A stretch of 55,773 bases of DNA from a virus (lineage: Duplodnaviria; Caudoviricetes). A program made the position numbers and the translations under genes. Every line of letters begins with the position of its first letter. Positions within the stretch are counted from its first letter, which is position 1. The stretch is taken from positions 1 through 55,773 of the IMG/VR virus record IMGVR_UViG_3300020152_000027. The stretch is one strand, 5' to 3'. This document shows, piece by piece, positions 2,602 through 53,090 of this stretch. Under the pieces are notes generated by a model, which saw only the letters and a program-made list of their open reading frames with translations, was not told the DNA's origin and did no database searches.

Positions 2602-2994
2602 TCACTTCCGTTCGTTAGATTTCTTTCGAGGAGACTTTGTTGCCTCACCTTCTAAGGCTCGGCGGGCAGTAGGGGCGTCGGGGAACTCGTTTTTCAAAAC
2701 GATGCGGTCTACTTCTTCGGGACTTAGCCCACACTTATCTTTCAGGAACAGCGCGCGCCACATCCTATTTTCTTCCGCCAGACGCTGGATGCTTCTTTCC
2801 TTCTCGTCTAACGCAGCATTAGCATCCCGATCTTTCCTGCGATCATTGTAACGCTTAAGTGCCCCGCTGGCAATTACCAGAAGAACGGCAACCGCGAGGG
2901 TTCCAGCTACACCTAAAGTGCCTATGAGCGTGTTCCAGAGGGCGGTAAAAGCCTTGACGAACTCCGTCGCCGCTTCCTGAATTATAAATGCCAT
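2602..2994 (-). CDS. Single-pass membrane protein with coiled coil
   Basis: LIGTLGVAGTLAVAVLLVIASG TM followed by charged helix. Confidence 0.65.
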   Translation of the reverse strand: MAFIIQEAATEFVKAFTALWNTLIGTLGVAGTLAVAVLLVIASGALKRYNDRRKDRDANAALDEKERSIQRLAEENRMWRALFLKDKCGLSPEEVDRIVLKNEFPDAPTARRALEGEATKSPRKKSNERK

Positions 2995-3081
2995 AAGAGG
3001 CCGGGCATGGGTGAGATGGCTTTCGGTTCTAGAAATTGCCTGCGGATATTATCAGTCATGCCAATTTATTAGCAAGCAAAT

Positions 3082-3108
3082 AAAAAACCCCGCCGGGAGT
3101 GCGGGGGC
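3082..3108 (-). terminator. Intrinsic terminator of cI operon
   Basis: CCCCGC-loop-GCGGGG hairpin followed by a T-run on minus strand. Confidence 0.7.
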
Positions 3109-3144
3109 AAGTTCTTTGTCGAGAGTTTTAAAGAATTAAGATTG

Positions 3145-3657
3145 TCAGCCAGCGATATTTCTCAGTGCTTTCGACTTCTTAAACCTGTGCGAGACGCCGG
3201 GTTCTTTAATGAGCGGGTATCTTTCATCGTCAGCAAGTTGTAACGAGTCGTCCCACCACACCCACCGACCGGCAACGTCGGCGCGCGGATAGAACTCAAG
3301 TAGCTTTCCGGCGATGTGTAATTTAGACAATTGAAACTCGCCTGACTCTGCTTCAGGATGAAAACTGTCAAGTCTGACCATGCCGGGACTTAGGCTTGTT
3401 AGCAAAGCAATTAGCAACTCTCCGTCGGGATACTCTATTCCGTAAACGCCGCATCCAACGAAGCCGCATTTGAGGAAAATTAGGATCGATCCGACTGAGA
3501 ATCTTGCGTAACCTTCATCTTCAATTTCAAGAAAAAAGCAGGTGTCCGTAGGAGAGTAACCTACAGGGACTCTAAGGTGTTGAACGTCGGGGGGGCTTCT
3601 TCGGGCGATTCGGCTGACACTACCCATATACAATGAGAGGCCAAAGCTGTACAGCAA
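3145..3657 (-). CDS. Stand-alone degenerate peptidase S24/LexA C-terminal-like domain protein
   Basis: Pattern FFLEIEDE..FSVGSILIF..GMVRLDSFHP..LHIAGKLL resembles the S24 fold without the GDSM serine motif; directly downstream of cI. Confidence 0.45.
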   Translation of the reverse strand: MLYSFGLSLYMGSVSRIARRSPPDVQHLRVPVGYSPTDTCFFLEIEDEGYARFSVGSILIFLKCGFVGCGVYGIEYPDGELLIALLTSLSPGMVRLDSFHPEAESGEFQLSKLHIAGKLLEFYPRADVAGRWVWWDDSLQLADDERYPLIKEPGVSHRFKKSKALRNIAG

Positions 3658-3740
3658 GGCGGTGAGTGGAATGCGAGTAACAAGCGTCGCGCCTTTTCCT
3701 TTCTTAGTTTCATACTAAAGCGTTTTTGGTACGTTTTATT

Positions 3741-4109
3741 TTAGCTTGCAGTTTTGCCTTTTTTCGGTTTGTAGGCTTTGCGCCTCTGCATAGGCATCAT
3801 TTGCTCAGGCTCAGATGGTACTTCCCTGATATTGGTTGGTAGTGAGGCGTCCATTTGTTGAAAGTTTAATTGCCGCTCTGCCCGCGCCCGCTCTCGTTGG
3901 CGTGCCCTGTATTCAATCTCGTCAAGTTGAGCATCTTCCCAGAACACGGCATATCTATCGAGTATCTCCACAGCTACTTCTGTCCGGTTCTTTTTGTCGC
4001 CTTTAAAGCGTTCCGCAAGCCGCTCCAATCGCTCCACAAGTTCTTTGGGGGCTTGGACGTTGAATTGCAATTTTCCTTTGTTTTCGCTCACAACAATCAT
4101 AGTAACCAT
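3741..4109 (-). CDS. CI-position repressor, Arc-like ribbon-helix-helix with coiled-coil C-terminus
   Basis: KLQFNVQAPKELVERLERLAE aligns with P22 Arc PQFNLRWPREVLDLVRKVAE; divergent from PR; GGAG RBS before ATG 4109. Confidence 0.7.
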   Translation of the reverse strand: MVTMIVVSENKGKLQFNVQAPKELVERLERLAERFKGDKKNRTEVAVEILDRYAVFWEDAQLDEIEYRARQRERARAERQLNFQQMDASLPTNIREVPSEPEQMMPMQRRKAYKPKKGKTAS

Positions 4110-4138
4110 TTCTAGAAATCTCCACAACTATTTTATCC

Positions 4139-4178
4139 TTGACAGCCCCGCTAGAATCTTCTAGAATCCTCTAGACAG
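4139..4178 (+). promoter_or_regulatory. PR promoter/operator OR
   Basis: TTGACA(4139)-17-TAGAAT(4162); CTAGA at 4151, 4161, 4171; back-to-back minus-strand TAAAAT could be the PRM -10. Confidence 0.85.
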
Positions 4179-4193
4179 ATTGGAGGAAAGCAG

Positions 4194-4373
4194 ATGCCGA
4201 AGTTAAAAAAGGGGCAAGTCGGGCGCTACGTTGTTTGGCCTAAAGACCTCGACAAGTGGCTACAGGACAAAGCCAAAGAGCATGGCCTTAACTCACCCCA
4301 AAAGTTTGCGGTGATGTCTCTTATGGGCGACATGCAGCGCACTGACGACGTTCCACAAAAACGCGCCTCATAA
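4194..4373 (+). CDS. Cro-position ribbon-helix-helix protein, 59 aa (not in ORF track)
   Basis: GGAGG RBS; MPKLKKGQVGRYVVWPKDLDKWLQDKAKEHGLNSPQKFAVMSL... has RHH strand-helix-helix pattern. Confidence 0.7.
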   Translation: MPKLKKGQVGRYVVWPKDLDKWLQDKAKEHGLNSPQKFAVMSLMGDMQRTDDVPQKRAS

Positions 4374-4500
4374 CTCTCCGGCTTTGGGGCGGGAGAAACG
4401 TACCAAGAAACCCCCGCCCCTCCACCGTGCGCCGCGACGCGAAACGGAGAGTAGCAAGTTCACTTGACCATTGAAATCACGACTTGCACGGAATTGTGCT

Positions 4501-4992
4501 ATGAGACCACAAAGCATCCCGCCGCCGTCACAAATCGAAGTTGAGGCCGAGCTACGCGACCAATTCAAGCACGGCGACATCACGGCTGTCTCGATCTGGC
4601 TCGGCCACCGAGACCACACGACGCTCTCTAGGGAGTTGAACTCCGAAGAACCGGCAGAGTCGTCCGCTTACGCTTTCCTCCGCTTTCTGGATGCCTGCTA
4701 CAAGACGCGGTTTGAGCTAGGCACAGCCGTATGGGCTTTGGTCGAACGCTTCAACGCCCGCTACCAGCAGAAGGCCGTAGAGACGCAGACGTTCAGCCCC
4801 GTTGCGGAAACATTCCACACCTTAAACATCGCTGAATTAAACGATCTGCCTGTGAGGGATCGCCTACGCGTGGCGCAGCAGCTTTACTCCGATCTAGGGA
4901 AGTACATCGCGGGTTTGTATCACTTGGACATGGACGCCGACGAAGAAGAGACGCAGTATCCCCGACCCGCCAAAACGGCGGGCGGGAGATAG
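4501..4992 (+). CDS. CII-like phage regulatory protein
   Basis: Position after cro; HTH-like ITAVSIWLGHRDHTTLSRELNS. Confidence 0.5.
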   Translation: MRPQSIPPPSQIEVEAELRDQFKHGDITAVSIWLGHRDHTTLSRELNSEEPAESSAYAFLRFLDACYKTRFELGTAVWALVERFNARYQQKAVETQTFSPVAETFHTLNIAELNDLPVRDRLRVAQQLYSDLGKYIAGLYHLDMDADEEETQYPRPAKTAGGR

Positions 4993-5007
4993 GCTTTTGA
5001 TTGGTTG

Positions 5008-5229
5008 CTAGGGAATCAGTTGAACGATGAACTCGCCAAACCACACCAGCGCAATGTTCCACTCCGAAGCTTCCGCTTCTGGATCGGTAGTCGCAGGGGG
5101 CGCGGCGGGCGGCGGGTTACAGCCGTACACGGTCGTCCAGATCGTGCCGTCTTTACAAGTGGGGTTGTTGGCCTCGACCGGGAGGTATAAGGCCAGCACA
5201 AGGGCAAGGGAGACGAGTAGCTTTTTCAT
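5008..5229 (-). CDS. Secreted pro-peptide (candidate signalling peptide precursor)
   Basis: Sec signal MKKLLVSLALVLALYLPVEA; core CKDGTIWTTVYGC; Pro-rich linker; amphipathic C-terminal helix. Confidence 0.75.
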   Translation of the reverse strand: MKKLLVSLALVLALYLPVEANNPTCKDGTIWTTVYGCNPPPAAPPATTDPEAEASEWNIALVWFGEFIVQLIP

Positions 5230-5235
5230 ACACAT

Positions 5236-5264
5236 AGTTTAATGAACGAAATCAAAACAATCAA
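5236..5264 (-). promoter_or_regulatory. Leaderless-type sigma70 promoter of the pro-peptide gene
   Basis: Minus strand TTGATT-17-TAAACT, 6 nt before ATG 5229; no Shine-Dalgarno. Confidence 0.6.
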
Positions 5265-6120
5265 ACTTCAACTCGCAAGCGTGCCGTCGAATCTTCCCGC
5301 GTGGGGAGATTGGAACGAGCAGGCGAACTGGCGTTTGAGGCTTGGTGAGTTTGACGCCGCGCTTTCGATTCTACGGGTGGCACTTTCGGAGACGGAAGAT
5401 GTCAACGGGCGCGCGGCACTGACCGCAACTCTGGCGCGAACACTCTGCGTTAGCAACCGCAAATCGCTCGCCTATCAGTTGCTATCCGAGTTTGATCAAT
5501 GTGCCATCTCCGATCCCCTCATTCTCGCCAAGTTTCAGCACACGAAGGCGAACGTCTTGGACGAGTCCGGTGAATACGGGAAAGCGTTGATAGAACTTGC
5601 CGGAGCAAGTGCTTATTTCGAGGTGGCAGGGCATCCAGATCGCGCAGAGGTCGCAGCCAACACGGCGAGCGTCTACGTCAAGATAGGTAAGCCCGAAAAG
5701 GCGCACCCCGAACTCGACAAAGCAGAATCCTACTTCCGCTCCATCTCCGATCAGGTTGCACTAGCCCAAACCTTAGAGACCCGCGCACGCGCTTACCTCG
5801 CAGAGAACAGGTGCGATGAAGCGTATGCGGCGATTAAAGAATCCCGTTCATACCTGACAGACGAAGCCCCTTTAATTCTCGAATCTTTGGCGACTGAGGT
5901 TCAGATATTGGATCGGATGAAGAGTATTGCGGAGAGGGAGCGCACCAGACTTGCGCTGTTATTGAGCGCAGGGAACTACAAGGCGGCTGGCAGGTTGTTG
6001 GACATAACGGGAACAGCAGTAAAGAACAGAGTCAAAGCAGACCCGACGCTAAACGCCTTTGAGTCCGGTAGTCATACCGCCGTAGCCAGTATGGATGATG
6101 CCCTTGAGGTCAGGCCATAA
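5242..6120 (+). CDS. TPR-repeat transcriptional regulator with C-terminal Fis-type HTH (candidate peptide receptor)
   Basis: Repeated TPR helices (GEFDAALSIL, GEYGKALIEL, AEVAANTASVYVKIGKPEKA, AQTLETRARAYLAE); ERERTRLALLLSAGNYKAAGRLLDIT matches the Fis/HTH_8 pattern; start uncertain. Confidence 0.8.
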   Translation: MNEIKTIKLQLASVPSNLPAWGDWNEQANWRLRLGEFDAALSILRVALSETEDVNGRAALTATLARTLCVSNRKSLAYQLLSEFDQCAISDPLILAKFQHTKANVLDESGEYGKALIELAGASAYFEVAGHPDRAEVAANTASVYVKIGKPEKAHPELDKAESYFRSISDQVALAQTLETRARAYLAENRCDEAYAAIKESRSYLTDEAPLILESLATEVQILDRMKSIAERERTRLALLLSAGNYKAAGRLLDITGTAVKNRVKADPTLNAFESGSHTAVASMDDALEVRP

Positions 6121-6309
6121 GACACCGAAGCGAGAAACGACCCACGGGATGAGGATGCCCTTGCAATCACCACTCGTTCCGATAGTGCCGAAGAAGTCAG
6201 AGCCAGTGCCGATGATGCCGAAGAAGTTCAACCCGCAGACGATGACACCTTTGAACATCGGGATGATGACACCGAAGCAAGCAATGATGATGCCAAAAAG
6301 TTTTTTCAT
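6049..6309 (-). CDS. Repetitive multi-peptide precursor (86 aa)
   Basis: MKKLF-GIIIAC-F-GVIIPM-FK-GVIVCG-LNFF-GIIGTG-SDFF-GTIGTS-GDCK-GILIPW-VVSRF-GVLWPD-LK-GIIHTG-Y-GGMTTG-LKGV; extended -10 TGCTAGAAT 8 nt before ATG. Confidence 0.65.
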   Translation of the reverse strand: MKKLFGIIIACFGVIIPMFKGVIVCGLNFFGIIGTGSDFFGTIGTSGDCKGILIPWVVSRFGVLWPDLKGIIHTGYGGMTTGLKGV

Positions 6310-6351
6310 AGCGGGAGATTCTAGCAGAAGGGAACAAGACGGCAAATATTT

Positions 6352-6732
6352 TCACGCGTCGGGCTTCGACTCGTTTTTCAGGAGTTCATATTCAACGCTC
6401 CATCTGGCGCAAACCTTGACCAGTCCTACAAGCGAGTTCCATGTGAGGAAGACATAGACACAGATGAGCAACACATCCAGACGCGAGGCCGCACCGGCGG
6501 GCGATACCAGAAGCCAAAGGACGAATATGTTGATGCACGCCAGAAACAACTGGCCTAACACTATCGCCGTCGTCTTGCCGAATATCTGTCTGTATATGGG
6601 CTTGTACGTGATCTTGCGCGGGTCGGGATGGTCGGACTGGATAGCGTTTCTCTTAACGATGTCCGCCCAGATGGGAGTAACGGCCATCACGATCATGCCG
6701 ATTATCGCAAAAACCAACTCACGAAAAGTCAT
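6352..6732 (-). CDS. Three-TM membrane protein (moron)
   Basis: Three hydrophobic stretches; opposite strand to the early operon. Confidence 0.65.
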   Translation of the reverse strand: MTFRELVFAIIGMIVMAVTPIWADIVKRNAIQSDHPDPRKITYKPIYRQIFGKTTAIVLGQLFLACINIFVLWLLVSPAGAASRLDVLLICVYVFLTWNSLVGLVKVCARWSVEYELLKNESKPDA

Positions 6733-6925
6733 AACTAGCCAATCGGATCGGGTGTGAGAAATCGGCGGTGAGTCTATCAGAGCAAAGTACTAACACAAAG
6801 GCTTTTCCCCCCTTGATCAGATAGTCAAGAGGGCAGACGAAAAGGATTAGTTCGATGATCCTACTTATCAAAAATCTACTCTCCATACTCTCCCATGAAG
6901 GTCTATGGCTGGAGGAAACGGTGTT

Positions 6926-7192
6926 ATGAGCGCGCTATTAAAAGTCGTTCCCACGGAACCGGACATCGAGCGGCTGGCTGCAATCCGCAACGAACAGGCG
7001 ACCTTAGCCCAGCGGATGGCGATGCACCTGAAGCACATGGAGCGGGCGCGTGCGGAGTGGACGGCTTTAGGAGATGAGGGGCGGGAACTGGAAGAGGGCT
7101 TCGAGCGGAGACGCAGAGCAAGGCTGCGCGACGAACTGCCGGTGATGGCCGCACCTATCAGGATTGAATTAGTGGAGGGGATGGGATGCTGA
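6926..7192 (+). CDS. Hypothetical coiled-coil protein
   Basis: GGAGG RBS upstream. Confidence 0.55.
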   Translation: MSALLKVVPTEPDIERLAAIRNEQATLAQRMAMHLKHMERARAEWTALGDEGRELEEGFERRRRARLRDELPVMAAPIRIELVEGMGC

Positions 7193-7301: not shown

Positions 7302-7826
7302 GTGAACTGGCGAGAATCACACCGGGCAGACAGGCGGGCTAATCGGCTTGCTAAGAGGCACTACACCTGCCAGACGCCCGCAAGCAACCAGTTCGTCAAG
7401 CCGGGGGGATGTTTAGTGCTGGTGACGAAGAACGCGGACGCTCTGTGGGTGACGAGCAGGCAGAAAGCGGAGTTCACCGATCACGCATGGGCGGGAGCAT
7501 GGGAATGCAGTTTATTCAGGAACGAGGGCAGGCTGCTTTCTTCAACTCTAATCTCAGAGGCAGTGGCAGCGACGGTCGCTTACTACGGCGCGCCTCCCCC
7601 GCTAGGCATGATCACGATGATCGATCCGCGCAAGGTAACAGGGTTTCTCAGGCGCACGGCGAAGGGCGTTGAAATGTCGTGGGGTTATTCATTCCAGCGC
7701 GCCGGGTTTGAGTTCGCGGGATGGACTAAAAGCGGGAAGTACGTCTTGCAGCTGCTACCGGAGAAGATGCCAGCAGCTTCCCCGCATGTCGTCCTTCAAG
7801 CTTCCATGTTCTCGGAGGCGGCATAA
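7302..7826 (+). CDS. GNAT/Mom-like fold phage protein (possible DNA modification)
   Basis: KRHY..QFVKPG, CSLFRNEG..SSTLISEAV, MITMIDPRKV..GYSFQRAGF resemble Mom-related motifs. Confidence 0.4.
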   Translation: MNWRESHRADRRANRLAKRHYTCQTPASNQFVKPGGCLVLVTKNADALWVTSRQKAEFTDHAWAGAWECSLFRNEGRLLSSTLISEAVAATVAYYGAPPPLGMITMIDPRKVTGFLRRTAKGVEMSWGYSFQRAGFEFAGWTKSGKYVLQLLPEKMPAASPHVVLQASMFSEAA

Positions 7827-47639: not shown

Positions 47640-48440
47640 ATGAAGACTATCGCCATCGCAAATCAGAAGGGCGGCGTAGGTAAAACGACTACCGCTGTTA
47701 ATCTTGCCGCTGCCCTACAGTCGCAAGGCCGGAGGGTGCTGGTGCTCGACCTAGACCCGCAGGCAACCGCCACCCGCTTCCTGCTCGACCGCTACGGGGC
47801 TGACGGGGAGACGATGTATGAAGTCCTCTTGAACAGTAAACCTCTCTCCGAAGTCATCCAGAAATCCCCCGCCGGTATCCCCATCGCGCCCAGCAACTTC
47901 AATCTGGCGTCGCTCGACCTCGACCTGAACAACGCCCTGAACCGCGAGCACCGCCTGACCGCCGCGCTGGAAGAGATTCCCGGCTACGACTACACGCTGA
48001 TTGACTGCCCGACGTTCTTAGGCTTCGCCAACATCAACGCCTTTGCCGCATCCCAAAGCGTGCTGATACCGATTGAATGCGCGCCGGAATCATGGGAAGC
48101 AGTTCCCTACTTGATGCAGACCTTACGCAAGATCATCACGCAGCTTAAACACCCGTTGAAGGTGTTCGCGCTGCCGACGTTCTTAGAGCGCACTAACATC
48201 GCCAGAGACATCCACGAAGAAATCAAAGAGCATTTTGAGGCGTACACCCTCAGTCCGATCAACAAGAACGTGAAACTGAAAGAGGCTTTCAACGCGAGAA
48301 AGCCGATCACTCAATACGACCCGGCGGCGTCGGGTGCTATGGACTACCTGAGAGCGGCTAAGGAGATCATTAGTGAACACGAAACCGAAAAGGAAATACG
48401 GCGAAGTAAAGAAGGGCGCGGAAACGACGCTCGGAACTAA
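47640..48440 (+). CDS. parA: ParA/Soj partition ATPase
   Basis: NQKGGVGKTT, DLDPQ, IDCP. Confidence 0.95.
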   Translation: MKTIAIANQKGGVGKTTTAVNLAAALQSQGRRVLVLDLDPQATATRFLLDRYGADGETMYEVLLNSKPLSEVIQKSPAGIPIAPSNFNLASLDLDLNNALNREHRLTAALEEIPGYDYTLIDCPTFLGFANINAFAASQSVLIPIECAPESWEAVPYLMQTLRKIITQLKHPLKVFALPTFLERTNIARDIHEEIKEHFEAYTLSPINKNVKLKEAFNARKPITQYDPAASGAMDYLRAAKEIISEHETEKEIRRSKEGRGNDARN

Positions 48441-52160: not shown

Positions 52161-53021
52161 CTAACTGGAAGGGAACTCGTCCCATGTGCGACCCGAGCCT
52201 TTTACCTGTCGGCGGTATTTGACGTTGACATAATCTGTGGGTAGGTATTGCTGCAAATCTTCCTTGATGTAGTGATCGTTTCCGGTCTCTGCGAGCAGTT
52301 CGATAACCTGCTTGGTGAACGCCTTCCAGTCCGTGCGCTTCGTCAGCGTCGAGTAGTTGATACGCCCGATCTTGTACAGGTCAACGAAGGTGTGAGTCTG
52401 GCGGATGATTTCGAGCGTCACGTCAGGGTCAATCACAGGTTCAAGGCTGACCCATGTATACAGCCCGGCTTCGTGGAAACGTTTCAACGTCTCAATGCGG
52501 TCTGCCGGGGAAGCCGCGCCCGCCTCCATCCTCATTGATGTCGCTTCATCCAAGAGCGTCAGGCTTGAGGCGAAAGCATCGCGGTCAGGGCGAAACAGAT
52601 CGAGGTCGCGAAGCGCGCGGCTCCCGCCTTTGGTGAGCGTGCAGAAGGCCATCCCGTGCTGGATGAGTGTTTGAATCGTCTCGCGCGTCAAGGACGTGTC
52701 GAACGGGTGATACGGATCGGTGGTGAAACAGAGCAAGACCTGTTCGGTAATGCCGAGTGATTGGTATTTGCGTGCATCTTTTGGAAGTTGTTCGCGGTAG
52801 ATCGCCCGATCTTTCGCGCCTGCGTCGAACTCTGCGCGGCTCATCTTCAAGACGCTCGGAACATAGCAGTAAAAACACTTATGGCCGCACCCTCGGTACA
52901 TGTTGGTCGCAAGTCGCGCATACTCTCCGGCCTGACCAGCGGGCGCGTAGATAATCGAACAGTTTTTGACGGAGTACCCGTCAGCGTTGAGCGTTGGTTT
53001 CATTGCAATTTTATTTGGCAT
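52161..53021 (-). CDS. Radical SAM protein (spore photoproduct lyase-like)
   Basis: YRGCGHKCFYCY CxxxCxxC; TTDPY; LTK; WVSLEPVI. Confidence 0.85.
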   Translation of the reverse strand: MPNKIAMKPTLNADGYSVKNCSIIYAPAGQAGEYARLATNMYRGCGHKCFYCYVPSVLKMSRAEFDAGAKDRAIYREQLPKDARKYQSLGITEQVLLCFTTDPYHPFDTSLTRETIQTLIQHGMAFCTLTKGGSRALRDLDLFRPDRDAFASSLTLLDEATSMRMEAGAASPADRIETLKRFHEAGLYTWVSLEPVIDPDVTLEIIRQTHTFVDLYKIGRINYSTLTKRTDWKAFTKQVIELLAETGNDHYIKEDLQQYLPTDYVNVKYRRQVKGSGRTWDEFPSS

Positions 53022-53090
53022 GTGCGTTTTCCTTAAATTACTTTCCTCTGTCATAGGGAATTTAGGTTGATGAAATTGCACCCTCTTGAG

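Follow-up and report, generated by a model that had tools for sequence, protein, structure and literature searches.

A repeat mini-protein family with a leaderless-type promoter layout in phages of soil Pyrinomonadaceae, and its resemblance to a host octapeptide array

The window analysed here is an IMG/VR virus record of 55,773 nucleotides (55.8 kb; IMGVR_UViG_3300020152_000027). It belongs to a tailed phage, with terminase, portal, major head, tape-measure and tail genes, and the DNA runs that contain this phage are soil metagenomes. We studied an open reading frame (ORF) of the minus strand (6049–6309, stop codon at 6049–6051) that encodes P0001, a protein of 86 amino acids (aa) built from short repeated units. 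An earlier interpretation made from the letters alone (hereafter the sequence-only reading) had described it as a polyprotein of hexapeptides, a library of pheromone-like peptides that could address or jam the tetratricopeptide-repeat (TPR) receptors of hosts or rival phages. Its description of the locus was accurate. The ORF contains all nine hexapeptides named, each preceded by F, K or Y, and an extended -10 box (TGCTAGAAT, 6318–6326, minus strand) is present 8 nt upstream of the ATG. The last 72 nt of the gene (6049–6120) overlap, on the opposite strand, the last 24 codons of a convergent TPR gene (5242–6120, plus strand; 292 aa, Pfam TPR_12, 31.6 bits), whose protein tail is unstructured in an AlphaFold2 (AF2) model (predicted local distance difference test, pLDDT, below 50). 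Two more genes complete the arrangement: a 173-aa ORF with no family assigned (4471–4992, plus strand) and a small signal-peptide protein of 75 aa, divergent from the TPR gene (5008–5235, minus strand). Signal peptides, here and in the locus L010 introduced below, were judged by eye.

Word-indexed and exhaustive HMMER searches of billions of proteins yielded few relatives of P0001. The family counts 10 proteins of 42–132 aa, from soil metagenomes, phage contigs or prophages of Pyrinomonadaceae (Acidobacteriota). DNA is available for four loci: the window; L002, a phage-like metagenome contig with tail genes that carries P0007; L003, a contig of a Pyrinomonadaceae metagenome-assembled genome on which P0009 is flanked by two further paralogues, with a tyrosine integrase and the host genes hpf and rpoN in the vicinity; and L010. 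P0002, P0003, P0006 and P0008 are represented by protein sequence only, and two other candidates of the HMMER scan, P0004 and P0005, were discarded as unrelated repeat proteins by eye. Searching Pyrinomonadaceae genomes, we found members in 2 of 401, namely G001 (the genome of L003) and G057 (that of L010). No further members came from a sample of 401 genomes of the phylum, from IMG/VR searches by protein, by alignment or by a DNA pattern for C-K-G-I-I, or from blastn and tblastn against INPHARED. A pattern of three GGCATCATC matched 31 stretches of IMG/VR, again with no further members; by eye, 36 translations from 29 of these 31 loci are unrelated simple tandem repeats. Among GTDB species genomes, a first scan returned none and a second recovered the L003 contig alone. 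P0001 matched no Pfam family at E up to 1 (RTX/HemolysinCabind, Pentapeptide, Curlin_rpt and Hexapep included), no NCBIfam and no PHROG; among eight other members searched against NCBIfam, five had no family at E up to 1 and three had matches far below the cut-off. A PDB sequence search gave nothing below E 0.19. This is a small unannotated family carried by temperate phages or prophages of soil Acidobacteriota (Pyrinomonadaceae). On a chromosomal contig of genome G392 (L009, 9832–10164, minus strand), beside a GGDEF-EAL gene, we also noticed a 110-aa signal-peptide protein with five perfect FAGVITAG repeats; its 8-residue G-V-I-T-x-G repeat and a profile match at E 4.9e-5 make it possibly a distant relative.

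Comparison of the frames favoured the minus strand by codon score, by GC content at third codon positions (GC3) and by synonymous variation. First, the repeat frame scored 0.325 per codon, against 0.058–0.471 for the 14 confident window genes that formed the training set, while the antisense frame in the phase of the TPR gene scored 0.146 and all remaining frames -0.07 or below. Second, GC3 is 0.67 in P0001 and 0.67–0.89 in 6/6 family ORFs with DNA, compared to 0.33–0.52 in the antisense frame, which reads as an acidic D-D-A repeat; the reference values are 0.58–0.87 for the 14 window genes and 0.66–0.84 for the neighbour genes in L002. Third, the Gly codons that start the units vary synonymously (GGC 24, GGT 6, GGA 1, GGG 2), and protein sequence, frame and start are conserved among loci while the DNA has diverged. 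In L003, moreover, three tandem family ORFs lie in two absolute frames, each keeping the G-I-I reading with its own start and stop, so that the single antisense ORF running across them reads two different antisense frames.

These data bear on the view that the ORF is not a gene at all, being either a by-product of the opposite strand and its acidic D-D-A tail frame or a repeat maintained at the DNA level. Such a view can point to the antisense frame in TPR phase, whose codon score is positive in the window and whose 258 nt contain a single stop, and to L002, where a 117-aa ORF spans the whole antisense frame. However, antisense GC3 lies below that of window and L002 genes, the antisense frame contains stops in 3/6 family ORFs and shifts phase between the tandem copies of L003, and the start codon and promoter are conserved. 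Already largely refuted, this explanation is scarcely credible, and the minus-strand ORF is very probably a genuine protein-coding gene. Tandem Repeats Finder (TRF) detected no tandem repeat in the DNA of the gene, and a DNA repeat search returned only copies 60–85% identical, with spacings in the three-copy and adjacent families that are multiples of three; the repetition is therefore maintained at the protein level. Rfam holds no family that matches the repeat-gene RNA, and its predicted fold is no more stable than that of shuffled sequences (z = +0.74).

P0001 holds ten [F/K/Y]-G-[I/V]-I-x-[T/P] units in its 86 residues. The motif [FKY]G[IVTG][IVLM] occurs 9 times, compared to a mean of 0.54 in shuffled versions, and none of 20,000 shuffles reached 9. 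The period is not that of a hexapeptide, as first proposed: units are spaced by 7–11 residues, and spacings of 8 (20 times) and 10 (16 times) recur among the 51 counted in nine family proteins. Over the 61 units of these nine proteins, the consensus is [F 23 / K 19 / other 19]-G-[I 27 / V 27]-[I 40]-x-[P 24 / T 16]. Two types of unit can be told apart, one of 10 residues (K/F-G-I-I-x-T-G-x-D-C/F) and one of 8 (K/F-G-I-I-aromatic-P-x-C/F), with a junction Cys that is freely swapped for F, L, Y or M. The repeats start at residue 4–6 of the family proteins. A contig from another soil run, belonging to the same phage population, is identical to the window over 6095–6229 and then diverges. Past 6095, the divergent sequence encodes an additional unit in frame (G-I-M-L-P-G-L-K-G-I-I-H); repeat number therefore differs among close strains.

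The abundance of Cys, Thr and Gly in these proteins, together with the tandem paralogous small genes of L003, is compatible with a multi-core precursor of a ribosomally synthesized and post-translationally modified peptide (RiPP), for example one whose Cys residues are cross-linked by a radical SAM or other enzyme. The window does encode a radical SAM protein (52161–53081, minus strand). We rejected it as a maturase, as it is of the wrong subfamily (PA0069/Rv2578c/SplB-like) and lies 46 kb from the repeat gene. A leader peptide is also absent, repeats beginning almost at the N-terminus, the boundary Cys is freely swapped as noted above, and the neighbours tested at L002, L003 and L010 include no modifying enzyme. 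A RiPP precursor is thus very improbable.

The start of the repeat gene has a distinctive layout. A TG-n-TAGAAT extended -10 element stands 8 nt ahead of the ATG, with TAGAAT beginning 14 nt upstream, and TGCTAGAAT was the only sigma-70-like site that a consensus scan reported in 4900–7000 (1.2 expected by chance). A candidate -35 hexamer, TTGCCG (6340–6345, minus strand, 16-nt spacer), comes from the consensus scan alone. The string TGNTANANT-N8-ATG occurs once in the entire window (0.20 expected) and likewise once in L002 and once in L003, in every case at the start of a family ORF, and in L010 the family ORF is preceded by TGGTTGAAT-N8-ATG. More generally, TG-n-T[A/T]nAnT followed by 8 nt and ATG stands before the first family ORF in 4/4 loci with DNA. 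Since the 8-nt spacer differs in sequence among loci, it is the layout and not the sequence that is conserved. No Shine-Dalgarno-like motif precedes the repeat-gene ATG, and the repeat gene is alone among 25 window gene starts examined in having TANNNT at -14. In one study, a TANNNT about 12 nt before the start, combined with the lack of a Shine-Dalgarno motif, is given as a signature of leaderless genes (PMC3160421). A -10 box so close to the ATG, without a Shine-Dalgarno motif, predicts a leaderless mRNA whose transcription would start at or within ~2 nt of the AUG.

Several observations accompany this promoter. Of the three tandem paralogues in L003 (9847–10294, plus strand), of 50, 45 and 42 aa, only the first has the leaderless-type promoter; the second begins 1 nt beyond the first one's stop, and GGAG stands upstream of the third. 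Upstream of the promoter, L002 (7817–7860) and L003 (9781–9825) have a conserved stretch of about 45 nt (CATCCTnAAnCTTCCnTTTCCT) in common. It takes in the start and ribosome-binding region of divergent genes that are unrelated to each other, and the mobile unit may therefore be larger than the ORF and its -10 box. In the window, the 75-aa signal-peptide gene has a TAAACT (within 5229–5247) directly before its first ATG (5235) and 6 nt before a second one (5229; MKKLL), so that this gene, judging by its sequence, may be leaderless too; only 6–12 nt lie between its start and that of the divergent TPR gene. Starting a transcript at the AUG from a dedicated promoter is familiar in phages: lambda cI transcribed from PRM and phage morons have their own promoter and a transcript starting at AUG, in or beside the immunity region, although their products are unrelated to P0001.

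We then considered what kind of protein is made. The first 37 residues of P0001 are membrane-like in hydrophobicity (19-residue hydropathy 2.51), and 6/9 family proteins reach a 19-residue maximum of at least 1.6, whereas 3/9 lack any membrane-like stretch, including the most regular member, L003A (maximum 0.48). AF2 with a 9-row family alignment returned no fold for P0001 (pLDDT 38.7). The ESM Atlas model (pLDDT 0.51) has curlin and RTX repeat proteins among its nearest folds, and its nearest clusters by features score 0.76–0.77, under the 0.9 level taken as a lead. We rejected a lipoprotein signal, as IIAC at residues 8–11 is too near the N-terminus and is not conserved, and a type IV pilin leader, as position +5 is not E. 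P0001 does share with beta-roll and solenoid repeats (RTX nonapeptide, pentapeptide, curlin) short Gly/Asp turns that alternate with 3–4 hydrophobic residues; it differs from them in having no Pfam match, irregular unit lengths and no confident AF2 fold.

One alternative is that the gene is an autonomous "moron" whose uncleaved product, membrane-inserted, membrane-associated or self-assembling as a beta-rich repeat, would act on its own, for example in superinfection exclusion, as a toxin-like peptide or by interfering with the envelope, with no functional tie to the TPR gene. Its own promoter, the tandem triplication in L003 and a location that varies, beside tail genes in L002 and beside an integrase in L003, speak for such an element, as do the absence of a TPR gene at 2/4 loci, the hydropathy values and the ESM Atlas folds. 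The gene also lies directly downstream of a co-oriented 126-aa ORF (6352–6732, minus strand) with hydrophobic segments by eye; the two may be co-transcribed, and this ORF was not found at the other repeat-gene loci. On the other side, the three members without a membrane-like stretch do not fit, G, P, D or K interrupt the hydrophobic stretches every 3–4 residues, AF2 yields no fold, and the four-gene arrangement recurs in an almost unrelated prophage (see below). Because unit lengths vary without a super-period, a regular solenoid is disfavoured. We regard the autonomous element as somewhat unlikely.

A second alternative keeps close to the original proposal: an exported protein would be cut at its F/K/Y junctions into pheromone-like peptides of six to ten residues, and these would be taken up again to address or block the TPR receptors of host or rival phages. 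Known pheromone precursors offer a scale for comparison. RRNPPA propeptides are 50–120 aa long, Sec-exported, and release pheromones of 5–10 residues, with 1–4 tandem copies in Bacillus phages (PMC11343458). The unit size of 7–11 fits this range, the cassette includes a TPR protein, P0001 begins with MKK and a hydrophobic stretch, and the host subtilase described below places 16 similar units between a signal peptide and its own protease domain. Export through another route has precedents as well, since the SHP pheromones of streptococci, which are short and hydrophobic, leave the cell without a Sec signal. However, MKK followed by a hydrophobic stretch is found in P0001 only, family members starting M-N-x-Y-G-I-I-x-T-G-x-D; at least 5/10 members carry D or K within residues 5–15 by eye; and reading the sequences by eye revealed no conserved signal peptide or other export signal across the family. 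Secretion and cleavage into pheromones are thus unsupported. The consistent cleavage context that had been suggested did not hold either, as F and K are two different protease contexts and the residue before G, split as given above, defines no single one. In addition, units abut without spacers or flanking recognition sequences, and the neighbours tested included no transporter or protease gene. The known systems are confined to Bacillota, with receptors whose helix-turn-helix (HTH) is N-terminal (PMC11343458). Overall, nothing shows cleavage or secretion, and an exported library is distinctly unlikely.

The AF2 model of the TPR partner is of good quality (pLDDT 80.6) except for tail residues 270–292, below 50, and shows an N-terminal TPR domain and an HTH-like C-terminal end (HTH by eye, with no Pfam match). 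The best 50 PDB fold matches listed are LGN/Pins, kinesin light chain and designed TPRs. The modelled fold thus resembles peptide-binding TPR superhelices, the LGN/Pins and kinesin-light-chain domains being binders of extended peptides. No RRNPPA receptor appears among these 50 matches, and phmmer against PDB found none either.

The cassette formed by these genes recurs. In the window the order is 173-aa ORF (plus), 75-aa signal-peptide protein (minus), TPR protein (plus) and repeat gene (minus). L010, in genome G057, has the same order and orientations, with a 190-aa ORF, a 79-aa signal-peptide protein, a 231-aa TPR_12 protein and a 42-aa family member, and there the cassette lies within a prophage immunity region with XRE and ImmA/IrrE genes. 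Both signal-peptide proteins are acidic, rich in Cys and Pro, and end in a hydrophobic tail. Across 62 kb, only three ORF pairs are common to the two elements, one of them at 62% identity, and the orientation of the cassette is inverted relative to this single well-conserved gene, from which it appears that the cassette behaves as a unit. The proposed link to TPR proteins therefore survives in part: it recurs in a second, nearly unrelated prophage, but 2/4 loci have no TPR neighbour. The likeness claimed between the units and the GTIWTT of the 75-aa protein likewise proved present but weak. Unit-like stretches do stand at the mature N-termini of both signal-peptide proteins (DGTIWTT in the window, AGTMYPG in L010); with a position-specific scoring matrix they reach 9.5 and 6.7 bits, scores attained by 42 and 103 of 5000 shuffles, respectively; the family median is 15.5.

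The overlap of the repeat gene with the TPR gene is not conserved, a 10-nt gap separating the two in L010, and the convergent ORF that covers the entire repeat gene in L002 is another one, of 117 aa and without Pfam family. The codons themselves account for such overlaps: the antisense of GGN-ATC-ATC is GAT-GAT-NCC, which is stop-free, and the nearly stop-free antisense frame of G-I-I codons thereby gives rise to overlap and run-on tails. Past the TPR stop (TAA, 6118–6120), the frame indeed stays open for 67 more codons (6121–6326), acidic and rich in D, E and A, up to a TAG within the -10 box. A convergent gene that enters in the stop-free phase continues as far as the AT-rich -10 box.

Convergence also raises the possibility of a role at the RNA level, in which the strong promoter would drive transcription that disturbs the TPR gene (in L002, the operon in which the repeat gene lies) and the peptide would be secondary. 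The genes are convergent in 3/4 loci; the antisense overlap amounts to 72 nt in the window and extends over the entire gene in L002, and on the plus strand a terminator-like site lies only past the repeat gene. That site is a hairpin from the consensus scan (6358–6380, plus strand), a weak call, with 4 found where 2.2 are expected; if used, it would place the 3' end of the TPR mRNA antisense to the entire repeat gene. On the other hand, the conservation of protein, frame and start despite DNA divergence, the lack of overlap in L010 and the unremarkable RNA fold and Rfam result all argue against it. We consider an RNA-level role quite improbable.

A search of candidate-host genomes, the check that the sequence-only reading had suggested, revealed units resembling those of the phage in a secreted subtilase adjoining a TPR regulator. 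The first sign was a marginal profile match (E 8.6e-4) in genome G149, to a 995-aa secreted subtilase with Peptidase_S8, PPC and weak SLH domains. Its pro-region contains GIVMTGAD 16 times without change, the copies being grouped by twos or threes between variable spacers. Such an array is found in 268 of the 391 sampled Pyrinomonadaceae genomes, a tally that includes unpublished ones, nearly always in frames of ~1000 aa, and G001 and G057 are among them. The octapeptide is invariant in 7/7 orthologues inspected, at overall identities of 72–100%, and the same regulator lies directly upstream of the subtilase in 7/7 loci inspected (regulator and subtilase at 2743–6192 and 6439–9426 of L077, G149:C5; also L069–L072 and L074–L076). 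In G149 this regulator has 1149 aa, with AAA_16, TPR_12/MalT-like TPR, winged-helix and BTAD domains. The subtilase has the appearance of a peptide precursor joined to the protease that would process it. A literature search found no paper containing GIVMTGAD-type peptide strings.

The phage units can be compared with this array. The 10-residue unit corresponds to a GIVMTGAD-type octapeptide plus two junction residues, and a host-type unit, GIIGTGSD, occupies residues 31–38 of P0001. BLASTP of L003A against the host repeat gave 37% identity over 49 aa (E 6e-6), and G[IV][IVL]xTGxD occurs in 8 copies in 6/10 family proteins, a level that 0/2000 shuffles reached; hhalign of the family against the host repeat aligned only 10 columns. 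Both arrays have the core G-[I/V]-[I/V]-x-T-G-x-D plus a G-V-x-Y-P variant, both occur in the bacterial family that carries the prophage copies, and the host array, too, has a TPR-containing regulator as neighbour. They differ in that the host array combines a signal peptide and 16 identical 8-residue copies with an S8 protease in a protein of ~1000 aa, whereas the phage proteins are free-standing, without signal peptide, with all units different and with extra C/F-K/F junctions.

Taking these observations together, we tentatively propose as the best reading that the repeat gene encodes a non-exported array mimicking peptide units recognised by TPR-type partners. The mini-protein would be made in the lysogen or early in infection and would remain cytoplasmic, acting as a multivalent mimic of the peptide units recognised by a TPR groove, either that of the phage's own TPR protein or, where no TPR gene adjoins, that of the host or of a rival phage. 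The mimic would replace or block the peptide-sensing input, and convergent transcription would make the repeat and TPR genes dampen each other. A bolder and unlikely version would include an undescribed circuit of the Pyrinomonadaceae: the subtilase would free many copies of GIVMTGAD from its own pro-region, the adjacent AAA-TPR-BTAD regulator would sense it, and the leaderless, non-exported and diversified phage arrays, sometimes with their own TPR protein and secreted peptide, would mislead or block host or rival-phage sensors inside the cell. Such a jamming cassette of many units would come near to the proposal of the sequence-only reading, with the difference that it would work intracellularly.

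Several findings weigh against the intracellular mimic. First, the resemblance of the units rests on short Gly/Ile-rich motifs and could reflect convergence, only 1/10 units of P0001 fits the host octapeptide pattern, and the host repeats may simply be a structural domain. Second, the phage TPR protein is not specifically related to the host regulator (E 0.025), the TPR proteins of the window and L010 are barely alike (E 0.02), and that of L010 has no DNA-binding end. Third, the cassette has been replicated at one locus; the similarity of the 75-aa and 79-aa proteins is not significant and the 173-aa and 190-aa ORFs are dissimilar. Fourth, TPR proteins are common, with matches in 298/401 Pyrinomonadaceae genomes (unpublished ones included), and none of the 20 neighbouring ORFs tested in L002 and L003 is a TPR protein, so the repeat gene can stand alone. 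Finally, the hydropathy of P0001 fits a membrane protein better than a soluble decoy.

Known phage systems help to place the mimic that we propose. Like the RRNPPA Rap-Phr pairs of phi3T and phi105, the window has a small gene beside a TPR-type gene in a temperate phage and several similar short units per product; RRNPPA systems differ by a Sec signal, 1–4 copies, a receptor with an N-terminal effector or HTH, and a restriction to Bacillota (PMC11343458). The window system has ~10 units, no export signal, an LGN/KLC-like TPR protein with a C-terminal HTH-like end, and an acidobacterial setting, and adjacency to a TPR-type gene holds in 2/4 loci with DNA (window and L010). Failing on Sec signal and receptor architecture, the repeat gene falls outside the RRNPPA family, and it may have a related working mode. 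The sequence-only reading's remark that no equivalent had been described was too strong, tandem pheromones being on record in phage Rap-Phr propeptides (PMC11343458).

The window cassette also has a three-part organisation in common with the arbitrium genes aimR-aimP-aimX, in which a TPR receptor, a secreted propeptide and a small downstream gene occupy the lysogeny region of temperate phages. The aimX gene, however, is co-directional and does not encode a repeat protein, and we found no sequence or fold relation to arbitrium by phmmer against PDB or among the best 50 fold matches listed. A precedent for jamming by a prophage is paratox (Prx), which reportedly blocks the ComR peptide receptor inside the cell; paratox is a folded globular protein, whereas P0001 is a string of peptide-like units.

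Other genes of the window inform on the life style and host of the phage. A ParA-type partition ATPase gene (47640–48440, plus strand) suggests maintenance as a plasmid-like prophage, and no integrase was seen among the window ORFs scanned, the scan being limited to those ORFs. A 174-aa ORF without Pfam family (7302–7826, plus strand) is 62% identical to a prophage gene of G057, its only match in 401 Pyrinomonadaceae genomes, a hint that the host of the window phage is a Pyrinomonadaceae-like bacterium.

On a sober reading, what we describe is a new small-protein family with a conserved leaderless-type promoter, together with an example of the run-on tails that neighbouring genes acquire from a stop-free antisense frame. 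Wider interest stems mainly from the recurring cassette and from the link to the host octapeptide, both of them computational leads. If true, the mimic would be a new mode of action, an intracellular array of signal look-alikes. Phage-bacteria communication by peptides is known only from Bacillota; the link, if functional, would add a new phylum to those with peptide sensing and its subversion by phages, namely the Acidobacteriota, which are dominant and little studied in soil.

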